A DNA stretch of 64,000 nucleotides from a virus: IMG/VR virus record IMGVR_UViG_3300035682_000005. One strand, written 5' to 3'. Positions 40,676-58,848 of the stretch are shown here, one piece after another (positions within the stretch are counted from its first letter, which is position 1; every line of letters begins with the position of its first letter). The notes beneath the pieces are model-generated. The model made no database searches, had not been told where the DNA came from, and was given only the letters and a program-made list of their open reading frames with translations. The position numbers were made by a program, and so were the translations under genes.

Positions 40676-40777
40676 CTCCAACTTACAATATAAGTTATTG
40701 AAATTGTGTGCAGTTTTATGCTTGACATTCTTATTGGATATTGATACTATTATAAGACTGACGGAAAGATATTTTAT

Positions 40778-40852
40778 CGGGGCGTAGCTCAGCCCGGCTA
40801 GAGCGCCTGTTTTGGGAACAGGAGGTCGCAAGTTCAAATCTTGTCGCCCCGA
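40778..40852 (+). tRNA. tRNA-Pro (TGG), CCA not encoded
   Basis: CGGGGCG/CGCCCCG acceptor; CCTGT-TTTGGGA-ACAGG; TTCAAAT; TTGACA-17-TACTAT upstream. Confidence 0.93.
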
Positions 40853-40883
40853 ATCTTTTGACCGGTTGGTTAAATAGGAAATT

Positions 40884-46706: not shown

Positions 46707-46925
46707 ATGGAACGCAAAGATAAGAAGTCTATTACACTGTATGACTTTCTCACTGATGATGAGATTAAGCAGGCGCAGCAATTAAAGAAAGCTAAAGACA
46801 TTTGTTGTGTGATTATCAAGCCAAACATTGCTCGTATCAACAAGCAGTTAGGTCAGGAAAACGATGAAATGTACCTTGCGTATGTGGTCGAGTATGTTGT
46901 AAGCATAGTGAACAGTAATAAGTAA
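46707..46925 (+). CDS. hypothetical protein
   Basis: IIKPNIARIN..LGQEND..YLAY. Confidence 0.6.
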   Translation: MERKDKKSITLYDFLTDDEIKQAQQLKKAKDICCVIIKPNIARINKQLGQENDEMYLAYVVEYVVSIVNSNK

Positions 46926-48615: not shown

Positions 48616-49083
48616 TTACCCCTTGATCACAATTTCGTGTGGGTATCGAGAGAGCAAGTTTGTTTGCTCAAGATACTTGCCCAATTGTTGATCAGTGAGC
48701 TTGCCAACCCCAGGCGAGCCAGCTGTAATAAGTTTCTTCAAGGCTTCTTTACCTTTTGAACTGCGCAAGAACTTAAAGAATATCTCATACGCATCTTTTC
48801 GTGTAAGAGAAAACTGTGGTCGAATCCACTCACGCTGCCATCGTCTATGAAGTGCAGCACTACGAGCTTTCCCTACAGGCGCGGCTGTTGTTGTTGGGGC
48901 TGACATTTCAATAGAACCATCAGTGTCCCATCCCTCTTCTGGGAGCATGTAAACACTCTTGCGATTCTTTGACCCCTTAGGGCGACCACGCTGTGATTTT
49001 CTTTGAGCTGGTTGAGCTTGGTGAGTATCATCATGTAACACACTTGAATTCTCATCAACAAAGTTTACATCATCAATTTTCAT
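48616..49083 (-). CDS. AT-hook-containing protein
   Basis: RGRPKGSKNRK; GGAG SD. Confidence 0.65.
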   Translation of the reverse strand: MKIDDVNFVDENSSVLHDDTHQAQPAQRKSQRGRPKGSKNRKSVYMLPEEGWDTDGSIEMSAPTTTAAPVGKARSAALHRRWQREWIRPQFSLTRKDAYEIFFKFLRSSKGKEALKKLITAGSPGVGKLTDQQLGKYLEQTNLLSRYPHEIVIKG

Positions 49084-49610
49084 AGTATCTCCGTTTCACA
49101 TTGTCGAGCTTGATTGCTCTTCATATTTCTAGTTTCGACTATCCATGGAGATTACTCAAGCACAAACCTTTAAAAAAGTGGAATAATTGTTATTGAGATG
49201 ATGCGAGACATTCTTATGGAACGCATTTGTTTTTATCACACGATATACGCTTGCCTATAAGAATACGAGATAAAACACTTACACAGACACAGTACCGTAC
49301 AGTAGAACTCGCCTACGTTCGTTCTACGCTGTTATACGTGATGTAAGTTTCTCGCATGATCGTAAACAGATATTCGTTGACACATTAGTACAGTATGCTA
49401 CACTTCATAGCAAAACCTCTTAGAAGGAGACTGTTACGCATGGTTTACATCATATACCTTACTGAATCAGCTATTGGGCACGTCTATACTGAGCTAGAAC
49501 ACGTCCTACAGTTTCTAAAGAGGGGCAAGCGACACCATAGAATAGAGATATGGCGCGACGGTGAGAGACGCGGAGTGCACTGGTAAACGACACAACGTGT
49601 CGCCTGGCGA

Positions 49611-49651
49611 CCCCTAGTAGGTTCTCGTAGAGCTTACTAGGGGATTTTTTT
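49611..49651 (+). terminator. intrinsic terminator
   Basis: CCCCTAGTAGGTTCT-CGT-AGAGCTTACTAGGGG followed by a T-run. Confidence 0.75.
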
Positions 49652-49727
49652 ACCCTGCTAAGTATCTGTTTTTTCTGGCATGGAATAATTGTTGCACATC
49701 TCCAAAAAGGTGTGCTATAATGTTCTT

Positions 49728-50006
49728 ATGTTAAAACAACAGCTAGTAGGAAAACGAGTTAAGGGATCCTTCGCAGGGTTCGCCTATACAGGCACGATTA
49801 TAGAGACGCAAGAATCAGACGGACATTTCAATCATGTGATTAAACTTGATGAGAGCATGATTCTTACCACAAGGCAGTTAGACTACCCACAAAGGTATTG
49901 GGGATATAAGGCACAGCTGTTTCAGGGGCTAAACTATTGCACTGAGAATGCTGAAAGAGTCGCGGGTACTCCCGATGAAACTCGAATGACTATGATCCTT
50001 TTGTAA
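49728..50006 (+). CDS. early hypothetical protein (leaderless)
   Basis: TTGCAC-18-TATAAT, ATG 6 nt downstream. Confidence 0.6.
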   Translation: MLKQQLVGKRVKGSFAGFAYTGTIIETQESDGHFNHVIKLDESMILTTRQLDYPQRYWGYKAQLFQGLNYCTENAERVAGTPDETRMTMILL

Positions 50007-50118
50007 GTAGTTGATTCCAGTATGATCCTAAAGATATTCATATGTTACATCTTCATAAAAACCCTTATATTTGCGCCACTTACGTTTCTTGCAATTATGG
50101 TAAATCTGGAAGAATAGG

Positions 50119-50148
50119 TTGACAACCACTTGGATAGTGTGCTATACT
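50119..50148 (+). promoter_or_regulatory. sigma70 promoter of the operon containing the hammerhead and tRNA-Asp
   Basis: TTGACA-18-TATACT with TG extension. Confidence 0.75.
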
Positions 50149-50180
50149 AAGCCTATAGAGAATAAGAAAAGGTAAACAGT

Positions 50181-50480
50181 ATGCAAGTTCAGAAAAGTCT
50201 CCAAGCAAAGATTAGAAAGTTCGGAAGCAAGCAATTGCAAGAGGTCTCAGTTGATGACAAGCGAGTTCTTGTTTCGTATACAACTCCGGTTGCAGTTAGA
50301 ATGGGAACAGAGTTGTTTGTTACTACGCAAAAATTCAGTGTAACAACCTCTAAGCACATCACACACTACATTGGCGACCTTATCAAGAAGGGAGAAAAGT
50401 TCGATGTTGTCCGAGTTGACCACGATGCAATCAAAAAGATCGTCCGTGAGACGTGTGGACTTGCGGTACCTTGGTCTTAA
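50181..50480 (+). CDS. conserved early phage protein
   Basis: LVSYTTPVA...KFSVTTSKHI. Confidence 0.7.
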   Translation: MQVQKSLQAKIRKFGSKQLQEVSVDDKRVLVSYTTPVAVRMGTELFVTTQKFSVTTSKHITHYIGDLIKKGEKFDVVRVDHDAIKKIVRETCGLAVPWS

Positions 50481-50511
50481 TAATTTTAATTGATGTGAAG
50501 AAGAGGTTTTT

Positions 50512-50694
50512 ATGAGTCACGAAAGCATTGAAAACATTATCGACAAAATCAACGAAGTAACCGACACGATTACCTTCCTTACCGCCGAGCTAGAAAATTG
50601 CTCCCTGTGGGGGAAGTACGATGAAGCCGACGAACTTTATGGAGAGCTTGTTGACGCTCGCCACGAATTAACGAAACTCGAAGGGATGCTGTAA
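50512..50694 (+). CDS. hypothetical protein
   Basis: GAGG SD. Confidence 0.6.
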   Translation: MSHESIENIIDKINEVTDTITFLTAELENCSLWGKYDEADELYGELVDARHELTKLEGML

Positions 50695-50695
50695 C

Positions 50696-50893
50696 ATGTT
50701 AAACTCAAAAGAAACAAAAGATCGCCTTGCTCAACTTGCCAGCTACCGCGCCTTGCTTATGGATAAGTTGCAAGCCGACTACCTTAGCCCACAAGAGCTG
50801 TTTAGTATTCAAGACTCGCTGATGATGATCGACACGGCGACGAAACAACTTACTGAATACTTGGAGCAGTTACAGAAGCCTATCTCATACTAG
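50696..50893 (+). CDS. hypothetical protein
   Basis: ORF tiling. Confidence 0.55.
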   Translation: MLNSKETKDRLAQLASYRALLMDKLQADYLSPQELFSIQDSLMMIDTATKQLTEYLEQLQKPISY

Positions 50894-50899
50894 AATAGT

Positions 50900-50966
50900 T
50901 CGCACCTGACGAGTCCGTATAAGGACGAAACGCCAGGGGTTTTTACCTTCCCCTGGCGTAGTGTGA
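50900..50966 (+). ncRNA. type I hammerhead ribozyme
   Basis: Stem I TCGCAC/GTGTGA; CTGACGA; stem II GTCC-GTATAA-GGAC; GAAA; 9-bp stem III CGCCAGGGG/CCCCTGGCG; GUA cleavage after 50960. Confidence 0.93.
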
Positions 50967-50979
50967 TAAATAAAAATAT

Positions 50980-51055
50980 GGAATCGTAGTTCAGTGGTTA
51001 GAACGCTCCCCTGTCACGGGAGAGGTCGTGGGTTCGAGTCCCATCGGTTCCGCCA
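50980..51055 (+). tRNA. tRNA-Asp (GTC)
   Basis: GGAATCG/CGGTTCC; CTCCC-CTGTCAC-GGGAG; TTCGAGT; encoded CCA. Confidence 0.95.
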
Positions 51056-51075
51056 TATTATGCAAAAAGGTTGTT

Positions 51076-51507
51076 ATGAAATATTTGCGTGAAGTCAGAG
51101 TGAAATACGGAAAGAAGATTCCACTGGTCGCGGCGATACGATCACCCCAACAGATTGCAGACTTCATACGAAAGAAAGTTCTTACAACTAACGCCAAAGA
51201 ACATCTTGTCCTTATTTGCCTTGATGGCAATCACGATGTTATAGCATACAATCTACTAGGCATCGGCACGGCCACATCATGCACGTTCCATCCACGCGAA
51301 GTGTTTCAGCCAGCTATCGTGGCAGGCGCCGTCTCAATTATTCTTGCACACAACCACCCATCAAACAACCTTGAGCCAAGCAAGGAAGATTTACAAGTCA
51401 CAAAGATTGCAAAGGAAGGAGCTAAACTCCTAGGCATCAAATTGCTAGACCACATCATCATAACAGACACCGGACATTATTCACTACACGAAGCTGGTAA
51501 CATATAG
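51076..51507 (+). CDS. radC: RadC-like JAB/MPN-domain protein
   Basis: KEH; HPREVF; AHNHPS...PSKED; LLDHII. Confidence 0.88.
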   Translation: MKYLREVRVKYGKKIPLVAAIRSPQQIADFIRKKVLTTNAKEHLVLICLDGNHDVIAYNLLGIGTATSCTFHPREVFQPAIVAGAVSIILAHNHPSNNLEPSKEDLQVTKIAKEGAKLLGIKLLDHIIITDTGHYSLHEAGNI

Positions 51508-51647
51508 ATCTACGAGAATTGCGTATCCGAGGCATATGTAAGTATCTAATATGGCTATGTAAAATAATTTGGAGTTATCACTTAAGCCCTTTATTTTACG
51601 TTGGATTGGAGCTTCGTTATATCGCCAAATTGTGATATAATAGTCCT

Positions 51648-51836
51648 ATGATGAAGCAAAAGATGTCACAAAAACAAATTGATAAAATTTTAGAGATGAG
51701 TTTAGAACAGCTCCTTTACTTAAGTCGGATGTTTCGAGAGTTTGATGTAAACACTCTTTTTGCTGAATGTGTTGTGTGTGAGATTCAACGCAGACTGAAA
51801 ACACACCGTTCCGAAGAGTGTGTAGCAAGTAATTAA
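51648..51836 (+). CDS. early hypothetical protein (leaderless)
   Basis: TGaTATAAT 6 nt before ATG. Confidence 0.55.
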   Translation: MMKQKMSQKQIDKILEMSLEQLLYLSRMFREFDVNTLFAECVVCEIQRRLKTHRSEECVASN

Positions 51837-51849
51837 CAAAGGTGATACT

Positions 51850-52056
51850 ATGAGACAAGCAAGCGAAACAGCCAAAAACAAGTTTATCCAAATCATCGAA
51901 GATACTGGTGTTGAGTTGACTCCGCAAGTAGTCCTTATGTGCATTGAACACGCTCGGCAAATGATGCTCTCTGGAGATGTATGTGTCGAAGCCTTCTATG
52001 AAGCAAAGAAGATCTTGATCGACCGTTGTGTAATGACTAGCGAAACAATTAACTAA
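51850..52056 (+). CDS. hypothetical protein
   Basis: AAGG SD. Confidence 0.55.
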   Translation: MRQASETAKNKFIQIIEDTGVELTPQVVLMCIEHARQMMLSGDVCVEAFYEAKKILIDRCVMTSETIN

Positions 52057-52203
52057 AAGGTATCAATATGAAATACAAAGGACAAACTCAAGACCTTTAC
52101 CTAGCTTATGTGAATGATTACCTCACGGTAGCCCGATGTGCCGCCGACCACGAGATTAGCCAATACAGCATGTTGCGAATTATCAAACTTTGGAGAAAAT
52201 AGT

Positions 52204-52365
52204 ATGATCTATGAAGAAGCAAAGAAGATCGTGGGCAACCAACCCACATGGGCTCTTAAAAACATGGTCAAAGCCTTGCAGATGTTTGGTGGCTATATGA
52301 ATACGCCAGAAGAGAACCTTCGACTTCAGGCAGCAAAAATTGTACTTAAAGGTAAAAGAAAATAA
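52204..52365 (+). CDS. hypothetical protein
   Basis: GGAG SD; [24 protein letters not shown]. Confidence 0.6.
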
Positions 52366-52366
52366 T

Positions 52367-52552
52367 ATGAGACACCTTCCATCAGAAATTGCATCCGTCA
52401 AAGCACGTATTGCGCAGATTAAAAAGACACAGAAGAAACTTGCGCCAGATGAGGTTGATTACTACACAAACCGCCTTGAGCTTGAGAGCCTAACAGAAGA
52501 CCTAAAAGAACTTCAACAGCTCGACATGATTACAGAAGAGCTCCATGCATAA
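52367..52552 (+). CDS. coiled-coil hypothetical protein
   Basis: ORF tiling. Confidence 0.5.
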   Translation: MRHLPSEIASVKARIAQIKKTQKKLAPDEVDYYTNRLELESLTEDLKELQQLDMITEELHA

Positions 52553-52680
52553 CGTGAGCAAAACGGATGATTGTGTTACACTCAGTGTGTTACCTTAGAG
52601 AAGCATTCGACATGGCACTTGATGTGCTATTAGCCGAAGGTATTGACGGAATTATTGAAGAGCTTGATGAGGACTAAACA

Positions 52681-52908
52681 ATGGACGTATGGAATTTAGA
52701 GAACCACAAAATCGAAGGAACCTACCACGGAGTGCCTTTCTGTGGAACAGTTGTGTTAAGCCGTGTGTGCTACGGGTCGCAACCAGCCATAGAACACACT
52801 ATTCTCCTTGAACGACCAATCACAGTAAACAACACGCCACGAACGCTTATCACAGTAAAGACATCAGACTCGTCAGATGTTGCAGAGTACGCCGTTACCG
52901 ACTTTTAA
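52681..52908 (+). CDS. hypothetical protein
   Basis: GAGGA SD; WNLE..I.G.Y....G.V..SRV.YG...HT. Confidence 0.6.
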   Translation: MDVWNLENHKIEGTYHGVPFCGTVVLSRVCYGSQPAIEHTILLERPITVNNTPRTLITVKTSDSSDVAEYAVTDF

Positions 52909-52922
52909 TAAAAGGACCCAAG

Positions 52923-53243
52923 ATGTTCAATGACACAAAAGATGATATTGTAACCAGGTACGCTGATGTTATTAAAGACAGACCAACAGTGTATGGCAAG
53001 ATTATGACCATTCATGTGTATCCAGAAGAAGAAAGCTCCGTTCCGGGAAACTTTGAAGTAGACCTGACCCTTGACAGTGGAGAACTCCTTGAAGCAAGTG
53101 TCCCTGCCGCAATGATTAGAACGTTACAGGAAAGAGCATTTGAGCCAGCTATTTTTGTAATAAATTCAGTTTCCAAGAATGACAAACATTTTGATTGCCA
53201 AGCAATCCTGTTTGGAGCTAAAACACAAACATGGGCAGCCTAA
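52923..53243 (+). CDS. hypothetical protein
   Basis: AAGGA SD. Confidence 0.6.
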   Translation: MFNDTKDDIVTRYADVIKDRPTVYGKIMTIHVYPEEESSVPGNFEVDLTLDSGELLEASVPAAMIRTLQERAFEPAIFVINSVSKNDKHFDCQAILFGAKTQTWAA

Positions 53244-53246
53244 GAT

Positions 53247-53438
53247 ATGATACCATTTGACAAAATCGCCGACGAAATCGAGGTACTAGAACAGACCATT
53301 CAAGACTTAGAAAACGCCTTTCCTAAAGTCATGGTGCCGTCAGTGCGTAGCAGCCTTTATGCAAAGATTGAAGAGATTAAAGACAGTATACAGATACTCC
53401 GCGAGAACCTCCAAGAAGAAAGCAGCTTAACTACATAA
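53247..53438 (+). CDS. hypothetical protein
   Basis: ORF tiling. Confidence 0.55.
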   Translation: MIPFDKIADEIEVLEQTIQDLENAFPKVMVPSVRSSLYAKIEEIKDSIQILRENLQEESSLTT

Positions 53439-53446
53439 CAACATAC

Positions 53447-53519
53447 GTCTCCTTCGTCTAGTGGCCTAGGACACCCGCCTTTCACGCAGGTAACACGGGT
53501 TCGAGTCCCGTAGGAGACA
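53447..53519 (+). tRNA. tRNA-Glu (TTC); C-A mismatch in anticodon stem, no CCA
   Basis: GTCTCCT/AGGAGAC; CCCGC-CTTTCAC-GCAGG; ACGGG-TTCGAGT-CCCGT. Confidence 0.88.
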
Positions 53520-53533
53520 CACCCTAACCCCCT

Positions 53534-53758
53534 ATGATAACACAGCACCAAAAGACCCGCCTTGACGAACTTACCCTTAAGTACAAATACTCCTTTTACA
53601 TCCACGGCTCTATAACAAGCGCATACAATACAATACGCCTTGCCGCATTTGTTAGCCTTAAGAAGCCAACAGAATACGAATCGTTTCAAGTAGATGATGA
53701 TAGATCCCTTATCTTTTACAACACAGAGACAAAACGCACTTTCATGTGCATAGAGTAA
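53534..53758 (+). CDS. hypothetical protein
   Basis: ORF only. Confidence 0.45.
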   Translation: MITQHQKTRLDELTLKYKYSFYIHGSITSAYNTIRLAAFVSLKKPTEYESFQVDDDRSLIFYNTETKRTFMCIE

Positions 53759-53865
53759 GCACATAACCCCCATCATACCCCTTGGACCAAGTTACCTGTT
53801 GTAACAGCCATTCTTGGTCCAAGTCAATACATATACCTGTATACATTAAACGCAGGTATATCATC

Positions 53866-54138
53866 ATGTCCATCCACAAAGATTTCAAAAAGAACCTAAT
53901 CAGTAAAGAGAAAGGTTCACACAAACAACGCGCCACAAGAACTCTTAGATCATTAGAGATATTTGTAACAGCATCAAAGAACCTTCTTGACGAGTGGTCT
54001 GACCTACTAGACGAAACAAGCAACCTTGATTATGGTGCAGAGAACTATCCCAAAGATTGGGACTCATTTGATATAGAGATAGAGCATATACGAAAATGGG
54101 CGAATTCTTTTAAAGACCAATTACGGAAGGTTAAGTAG
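53866..54138 (+). CDS. hypothetical protein
   Basis: ATG after hairpin containing AGG. Confidence 0.55.
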   Translation: MSIHKDFKKNLISKEKGSHKQRATRTLRSLEIFVTASKNLLDEWSDLLDETSNLDYGAENYPKDWDSFDIEIEHIRKWANSFKDQLRKVK

Positions 54139-58648: not shown

Positions 58649-58848
58649 ACAGAAAAACACACAATGCGTATCGACTTTCAGTTGTGGAACTCACTGATGA
58701 TGAGTTAAGAAAGGAGATATGGCTTCTTGATGAGCACATTAAATACTTACAACGTGAGGATGATCAACGTGCGCATGATGTAATTGAACTGTTACACGTT
58801 GCAATTGACGAAAAGGATCGGCGAGCAATCAACAAAGGATACATGTAA
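58636..58848 (+). CDS. hypothetical protein
   Basis: GGAG SD. Confidence 0.55.
   Translation: MSAVNRKTHNAYRLSVVELTDDELRKEIWLLDEHIKYLQREDDQRAHDVIELLHVAIDEKDRRAINKGYM

Follow-up and report, generated by a model that had tools for sequence, protein, structure and literature searches.

A Type I Hammerhead Ribozyme Conserved Upstream of a radC-Like Gene in Phages, with a Lineage-Specific tRNA-Asp Neighbour

Genomic Setting

The stretch of viral DNA analysed here (referred to as the window; 64,000 nt, IMG/VR record IMGVR_UViG_3300035682_000005) comes from a large tailed phage and encodes tail proteins, an endolysin-like protein, and a gp5-like baseplate hub. The phage is present in lake-water metagenomes, and a RadC protein 100% identical to that of the window is encoded on further contigs.

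The locus lies on the + strand and is headed by a sigma-70-type promoter (TTGACA-18-TATACT, with a TG before the -10 element; 11 of 12 matches) at 50119-50148. This is the best promoter-like site within 49000-54000 and is conserved in the related contig L018. The promoter is followed by three small open reading frames, i.e., ORF1 (50181-50480, 99 aa, DUF8033/phrog_5643), ORF2 (50512-50694, 60 aa, without a known family), and ORF3 (50696-50893, 65 aa). ORF1 is 97% identical in the relative L086 and 86% in L018. The stop codon of ORF3 lies 6 nt ahead of a predicted type I hammerhead ribozyme (50900-50966, +), which is followed by a tRNA-Asp(GTC) gene with an encoded CCA end (50980-51055, +) and by a RadC-like JAB-domain gene (51076-51507, +; PF04002, E 2.6e-39). 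The original prediction had described a polycistronic unit consisting of exactly these parts, all of which are located, and no + strand terminator is predicted between the promoter and position 54000. Co-transcription of the promoter-distal elements with the three ORFs is probable. A second promoter-like sequence (GTTACA-16-TAGAAT, 50869-50896, 9 of 12 matches), from which transcription would start inside the ribozyme, was rejected; such sites occur at chance level (15 sites versus 10.5 expected), and this one is not conserved.

Several other elements were noted elsewhere in the window. Rfam calls a tmRNA at 11437-11836 (+; 59.3 bits, gathering threshold 47), for which there is no ARAGORN call, and a CyVA-1 RNA at 12255-12330 (+; 45.6 bits, gathering threshold 41.4). 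A 17-nt palindromic hairpin motif is present in two copies, TCTCACTGATGATGAGA at 46748-46764 and ACTCACTGATGATGAGT at 58689-58705 (+), with 0.05 matches expected by chance.

Architecture of the Hammerhead

The hammerhead was identified on the basis of its sequence, its fold, and a covariance model. Stem I pairs 50900-50905 (TCGCAC) with 50961-50966 (GTGTGA) in 6 bp, including one G-U pair, and its end is open; it is this open helix that assigns the ribozyme to type I. The catalytic core CUGACGA (CTGACGA in the DNA) occupies 50906-50912 and leads into stem II (GTCC/GGAC, 50913-50916 and 50923-50926), a 4-bp helix closed by a GTATAA loop. The GAA element at 50927-50929 connects stem II to stem III, a 10-bp helix of 50930-50939 with 50950-50959 (ACGCCAGGGG and CCCCTGGCGT) and a 10-nt loop. 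Stem III forms an unusually long and G+C-rich hairpin. The residues required for the core (C3, U4, G5, A6, N7, G8, A9, G12, A13, and A14) are complete, with C at the free position N7, and the pairs adjacent to the core (G50961-C50905, G50913-C50926, and A50930-U50959) are all standard. The cleavage-site nucleotide H17, which hammerheads require not to be G, is A50960.

Folded by minimum free energy, 50898-50968 takes up precisely the hammerhead structure (-32.5 kcal/mol, z = -5.2), and 0 of 200 shuffled sequences folded as well. Thus, the complete three-stem hammerhead reported previously at this position is confirmed in all of its elements. No type II or type III hammerhead topologies were found in the window by a descriptor scan. 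A search by eye for a tertiary contact or pseudoknot between loop II and stem I revealed no conserved complementary partner in the flanks; for this reason, cutting at cellular Mg2+ could be slow.

Cleavage is predicted after A50960 and would leave an A/U-rich stretch of 19 nt (50961-50979) as a putative 5′-OH leader of the pre-tRNA. The first 6 nt of this leader constitute the 3′ strand of stem I, such that the end of stem I (50966) is separated from the tRNA by 13 nt. The tRNA 5′ end at 50980 is supported both by ARAGORN and by the Rfam tRNA model (70.1 bits), and the coordinates of cut site, leader, and tRNA agree with those proposed originally.

Statistical Support

Infernal searches with hammerhead models, put forward with the original prediction as a check, gave a divided result. 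At the Rfam gathering thresholds, no hammerhead is called in the window, and the scores of the two relevant families are well under those thresholds (HH9, 19.1 bits versus 52; RAGATH-1-hammerhead, 20.7 versus 56.3; both in E-value mode). A separate covariance model was trained on 25 type I hammerheads from unrelated IMG/VR contigs, with the window and its orthologues left out. When the whole 64-kb window was searched with this model and with filters off, 50901-50965 scored 41.2 bits (E 3.5e-9, a rough value owing to short calibration). The sole other significant match in the 64 kb is a second hammerhead (14074-14144, 33.5 bits, E 5e-7), and the remaining matches have E values of at least 0.14. 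The descriptor scan yields two real matches in the window and none in 30 shuffled windows.

The second hammerhead is also of type I (14073-14145, +), with a cut predicted after 14139. It ends a conserved non-coding RNA of approximately 160-230 nt (13910-14145, +), orthologues of which are found at L022:1995-2213, L013:4734-4949, and L001:8240-8470(-). This RNA has its own promoter-like ATAGTA box and a long hairpin of irregular shape, in which several pairs are compensatory, and the part upstream of the ribozyme has no match to an Rfam family. A convergent ORF on the - strand (14150-14887) lies directly beyond the hammerhead. In this arrangement, a small RNA would have the second hammerhead as its 3′ end.

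Homologous Ribozymes Upstream of radC

Relatives of the locus were recovered by pattern scans, look-ups of RadC homologues, and the covariance model. In four phage lineages, a homologous hammerhead occupies the spacer that separates the radC-like gene from a small ORF ahead of it. The first is that of the window, with the order ribozyme, 19-nt leader, tRNA-Asp, and radC. The second (L086-L089) shares this arrangement, 19-nt leader included, with RadC 78% and ORF1-3 88-97% identical to those of the window. In the third (L018/L012/L021 and L026), the ribozyme is followed after 20 nt by the start of radC, and there is no tRNA; RadC is 80% and ORF3 43% identical. The fourth (L099-L101) also has no tRNA, with 17 nt between ribozyme and radC, a RadC identity of 55%, and a DUF8033 ORF in the operon. 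In all four lineages, the hammerhead begins 0-7 nt past the upstream stop codon, which in L099 falls within stem I.

Five distinct orthologous sequences were aligned for covariation analysis. Standard pairs occupy 99% of the pair cells in this alignment, as opposed to 31-51% in slid controls. Compensatory double changes are seen in six pairs (five in stem III and one in stem I), and the observed covariation score was reached by none of 500 shuffles. Apart from the free position N7, where C and U both occur, the core is invariant across the five sequences. The H17 residue is C in L099, and loop II, GUAUAA in the window, has the GNRA sequence GUAA in L018, L086, and L099. Conservation of the ribozyme is far above that of the adjacent end of ORF3. 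The hammerhead motif is genuine and, as judged from this comparison, under selection; its cleavage is expected from established hammerhead chemistry.

These data bear on whether the element could be a non-working relic, i.e., a stable cluster of hairpins that might, for example, stabilise the 3′ end of the upstream mRNA or offer an entry site to RNase III or RNase E. The subthreshold Rfam scores, the undetected tertiary contact, the unusual length of the G+C-rich stem III, and the competing helix predicted in the window phage (see below) would all fit such a relic. In contrast, the invariant core positions are retained throughout the four lineages, in which RadC identity falls as low as 55%, against a background of covarying stems and variable loops. 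The sole differences at the catalytic positions are those at the free N7 position of the core and a permitted A-to-C exchange at H17. The same pattern is shown by the second, paralogous hammerhead of this phage, and the E value of the independent model argues in the same direction. A relic is thus considered highly improbable.

The competing helix would form between the last codons of ORF3 (UCAUACUAG, 50885-50891) and the segment 50960-50966, where the cut site adjoins the 3′ strand of stem I. For the window sequence, it is isoenergetic with stem I (-34.1 versus -33.6 kcal/mol), and the pair probability of stem I is approximately 0.28. In L086, L018, and L099, on the other hand, this probability is 0.9-1.0, and the alternative helix is unfavoured and not conserved. 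It is competitive in the window phage only because of the G-U pair in stem I of the latter. According to these folding models, the near-isoenergetic helix, unique to the window phage, could slow folding of the ribozyme. The two helices could in principle also constitute a translation- or folding-gated switch, in which cutting is tied to the ribosomes finishing ORF3, and the closeness of the hammerhead to the preceding stop codon throughout the four lineages is what such coupling would lead one to expect. Such tight spacing is, however, normal in compact phage genomes, and with the alternative helix disfavoured in the three relatives, a switch has very little probability, slightly below that of a relic.

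Other relatives have no ribozyme at this site. A hammerhead is absent near radC in L019, L020, L090-L098, and L102-L105; in L090, L093, L096, L097, and L105, the upstream ORF abuts radC, and in P0007 a 15-nt gap alone speaks against a hammerhead. In the RadC tree, L102 is the sister of L099; it carries a consensus-like sigma-70 promoter (TTGACA-17-TATACT, L102:950-1000) in the position of the ribozyme. This pair of sequences indicates that the place of the ribozyme ahead of radC can be taken by a promoter, which fits a ribozyme that supplies an independent 5′ end.

A blastn comparison with 50,697 phage records matched the tRNA alone. Contigs of four lake-water DNA runs contained only the window phage, at low depth, and unrelated tRNAs; no alleles with or without tRNA-Asp were found in them. 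The public sequencing runs listed for the phage include no RNA run.

Probable Relocation of tRNA-Asp

The original prediction took the ribozyme to be placed for the tRNA, which the relatives do not bear out. As the same hammerhead is kept ahead of radC without a tRNA in L018/L026 and L099-L101, it is independent of tRNA-Asp, and its ancestral site, in the simplest history, is the 5′ untranslated region of radC. The tRNA, in turn, is found elsewhere in relatives. A contig of the L018 type encodes a 100% identical tRNA-Asp approximately 11 kb from the ribozyme, where it directly follows a sigma-70 promoter and precedes a tRNA-Pro by 8 nt. In the contig G001, a 99% identical tRNA-Asp belongs to a Glu-Asp-Pro-Asn cluster; this contig also carries an orthologue of the second hammerhead of the window. 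In the window, the homologous tRNA-Pro (40777-40853) is solitary behind its own promoter.

The tRNA regions of two relatives (L222, G003:C1:24544-27619; L223, G001:C1:81312-84387) were compared with positions 40777-40853 and 50980-51055 of the window. Similarity between the two types of Asp site ends precisely at nucleotide 1 of the tRNA and at its CCA end, which suggests a relocation bounded exactly by the tRNA gene. A relocation is also called for by the identical tRNA-Asp in a promoter-driven Asp-Pro cluster together with the tRNA-less ribozyme-radC order in two lineages. In the simplest history, tRNA-Asp moved into an old ribozyme-radC spacer in the ancestor of the window and L086, and the Asp-Pro cluster is old as well. 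The direction of this move rests on parsimony over few lineages because the region is mosaic, with ORF1-3 pairing the window with L086 and RadC weakly pairing L018 with L086.

Hammerhead-tRNA Adjacency in Other Phages

The frequency of hammerhead-tRNA adjacency was estimated from an unbiased sample of 94 unique type I hammerheads in IMG/VR, picked by the sequence of core and stem II alone. A tRNA abuts the hammerhead in one case (tRNA-His, at 1 nt) and lies within 300 nt in four. Among the first 17 IMG/VR loci retrieved with a stem I/core pattern, none has a tRNA within 1.5 kb. The usual placement in the sample of 94 is approximately 13 nt from the upstream stop codon and 36 nt from the next ORF (medians, which are rough and have no null model), in agreement with the prophage hammerheads of Perreault et al. 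2011 (PMC3088659). As regards the survey of adjacency suggested in the original prediction, the arrangement is shared by L086-L089 but missing from the two tRNA-less lineages and from nearly all hammerheads in the sample.

A deliberately biased pattern, in which a hammerhead core is followed by a T-loop-like motif, revealed a distinct class of fused loci. The cut site coincides with position +1 of tRNA-Tyr in eight loci (L047:5861-5907(-), L051:8394-8447, L052:6872-6925, L053:6628-6678, L065:2067-2120(-), L073:3902-3951(-), L081:4324-4377(-), and L055). In others, it falls 1 nt before tRNA-His (L061 and L159, where the extra nucleotide is possibly the G-1 residue) or tRNA-Gly (L063:10045-10097(-)). 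The same pattern also recovered a few hammerheads with leaders of 6-45 nt. In the fused class, the acceptor strand of the tRNA acts as the 3′ strand of stem I, such that these hammerheads would give the tRNA 5′ end without RNase P. A literature search, of incomplete coverage and hence not proof of novelty, returned no paper on phage hammerheads located 5′ of or fused to tRNAs, nor any on a link between hammerheads and RadC.

A further IMG/VR hammerhead family (GGCACACTGATGAGTCC..., in L028, L032, L040, L044, and L046) has a T-loop-like GGTTCRANTCC motif approximately 100 nt downstream and no ARAGORN tRNA. The downstream motif may be a tRNA-like element.

The window hammerhead stands outside the fused class, although it too is of type I and lies immediately 5′ of a same-strand phage tRNA, and some fused members share its stem II (GTCC..GGAC). 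Whereas the acceptor stem provides the 3′ strand of stem I in the fused loci, with a cut at tRNA +1 (-1 for His), the window hammerhead has a stem I of its own and a 19-nt leader.

The locus can also be considered as a dedicated module for tRNA 5′ processing, in which the ribozyme would be kept to free a pre-tRNA-Asp with a short leader for better RNase P processing or tRNA yield. Several observations are in keeping with such a module. The leader and tRNA are conserved along with the ribozyme in the sister lineage L086-L089. The leader differs between the window and L086 only by one U/C exchange in stem I, and the near-identity of the entire hammerhead-leader-tRNA block, including the 13-nt spacer, would also be compatible with selection acting on the module as a whole. 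Coupling of hammerheads to tRNA 5′ ends does occur in phages, as seen in the loci just described, and the passage of the tRNA from a promoter-proximal to a ribozyme-proximal site fits a need for a nearby 5′ end. However, the ribozyme was in place before the tRNA arrived, two lineages retain it with no tRNA there, its stem I excludes the tRNA, and only about 1% of the unbiased sample abuts a tRNA. The predicted cut misses the mature 5′ end, so that RNase P is required either way. The other three tRNAs of the window (Pro, Glu, and Thr) have no ribozyme, even though tRNA-Glu and tRNA-Thr lie inside operons. A dedicated tRNA module is accordingly regarded as unlikely.

Relation to Known Ribozymes

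The closest known counterparts are the intergenic type I hammerheads of phages and prophages (PMC3088659; Rfam clan CL00010), which have the same core, three-helix junction, and open stem I. According to Perreault et al. (2011, PMC3088659), the hammerheads of prophages flank genes and cleave polycistronic RNAs in the test tube as well as in vivo. Like these, the window hammerhead lies between genes of a polycistronic phage transcript and is present in more than one copy per genome. The likeness extends to the position directly upstream of a particular gene, which is ardA in the prophages (Perreault et al. 2011, PMC3088659) and a radC-like gene here. In contrast to the former, the window hammerhead does not reach the gathering thresholds of Rfam, the search by eye revealed neither a pseudoknot nor a loop-loop contact, and in its lineage a tRNA gene is inserted between the ribozyme and the downstream gene.

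Theta ribozymes are minimal HDV-like ribozymes located 3′ of phage tRNAs, where they cut at or near the tRNA 3′ end and replace an enzymatic step (Kienbeck et al. 2024, PMC10879173). The statement in the original prediction that they trim the 3′ trailers of phage tRNAs agrees with that work. Both theta ribozymes and the window hammerhead belong to small self-cleaving classes and lie beside a phage tRNA on the same strand, with a cut (here predicted) that shortens a tRNA flank. The window ribozyme differs in its hammerhead fold, in its position 5′ of the tRNA, in the 19 nt that it leaves for RNase P, and in its existence without a tRNA in relatives. HDV-family matches were found neither around the tRNA (E up to 10) nor in the whole window (E up to 1). 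The proposal of a 5′-side counterpart of theta ribozymes can be retained in part: the cut would give a pre-tRNA for RNase P and a structured 3′ end for the upstream RNA, but the relatives argue against a ribozyme placed there for the tRNA.

The order of ribozyme, cut site, and tRNA also resembles that of engineered hammerhead-tRNA transcripts, which serve to produce tRNAs with a defined 5′ end in vitro and are cut exactly at tRNA +1. In both, the product on the tRNA side carries a 5′-OH (here predicted). Unlike the engineered cut, the natural cut predicted in the window is not at tRNA +1.

Finally, a conserved structured RNA, the radC motif, lies upstream of radC in Proteobacteria (RF01754; Weinberg et al. 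2010, PMC2864571). It was considered as an identity for the element and rejected, as it has no Rfam match in the window; the position upstream of a radC-like gene is the sole shared feature.

Proposed Role and Significance

The locus is a new case of the known intergenic phage hammerheads, with a secondary and lineage-specific tRNA neighbour, and nothing in it is categorically new. As Perreault et al. (2011) describe for such hammerheads, its most likely role is to cut a polycistronic phage transcript and to provide a 5′ end for the downstream RNA. The hammerhead is thus probably an mRNA-processing ribozyme in a sigma-70-driven operon, the link to the tRNA being incidental or at most co-opted. 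After transcription, it would fold and cut itself after A50960. The upstream message of three ORFs would then end in a compact ribozyme with a 2′,3′-cyclic phosphate, and the downstream RNA would acquire a new 5′-OH end at G50961, near the next gene. For that gene, the new end would be the RNA-level equivalent of its own promoter. We infer that the cut would influence the stability and expression of the RNAs.

In the relatives, the downstream product would be a radC message with a 20-25-nt leader. In the window phage, it would be a pre-tRNA-Asp with a 19-nt leader followed by radC, as a by-product of the tRNA move. The mature 5′ end of tRNA-Asp would still be generated by RNase P, and the 3′ side would be trimmed by host nucleases. 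As RNase P and ordinary 3′ trimming are still needed, the ribozyme would remove no enzymatic step, which sets it apart from theta ribozymes (PMC10879173).

A more far-reaching possibility is that hammerheads are promoter substitutes in phages, that this service has been co-opted for tRNA-Asp, aiding its release and processing by RNase P, and that the window represents an intermediate toward the fused class that cuts at +1. We regard this extension as speculative and doubtful.

The lineages together offer a natural comparison set in which one homologous ribozyme is followed by radC, or by a relocated tRNA and radC, or is replaced by a promoter. This set makes it testable whether phage hammerheads provide the downstream RNA with a 5′ end of its own, and it also cautions against over-reading adjacency, since here the tRNA came to the ribozyme and not the reverse. 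A true hammerhead-tRNA fusion, which would bypass RNase P, exists in other phages and is a separate arrangement worth its own study.
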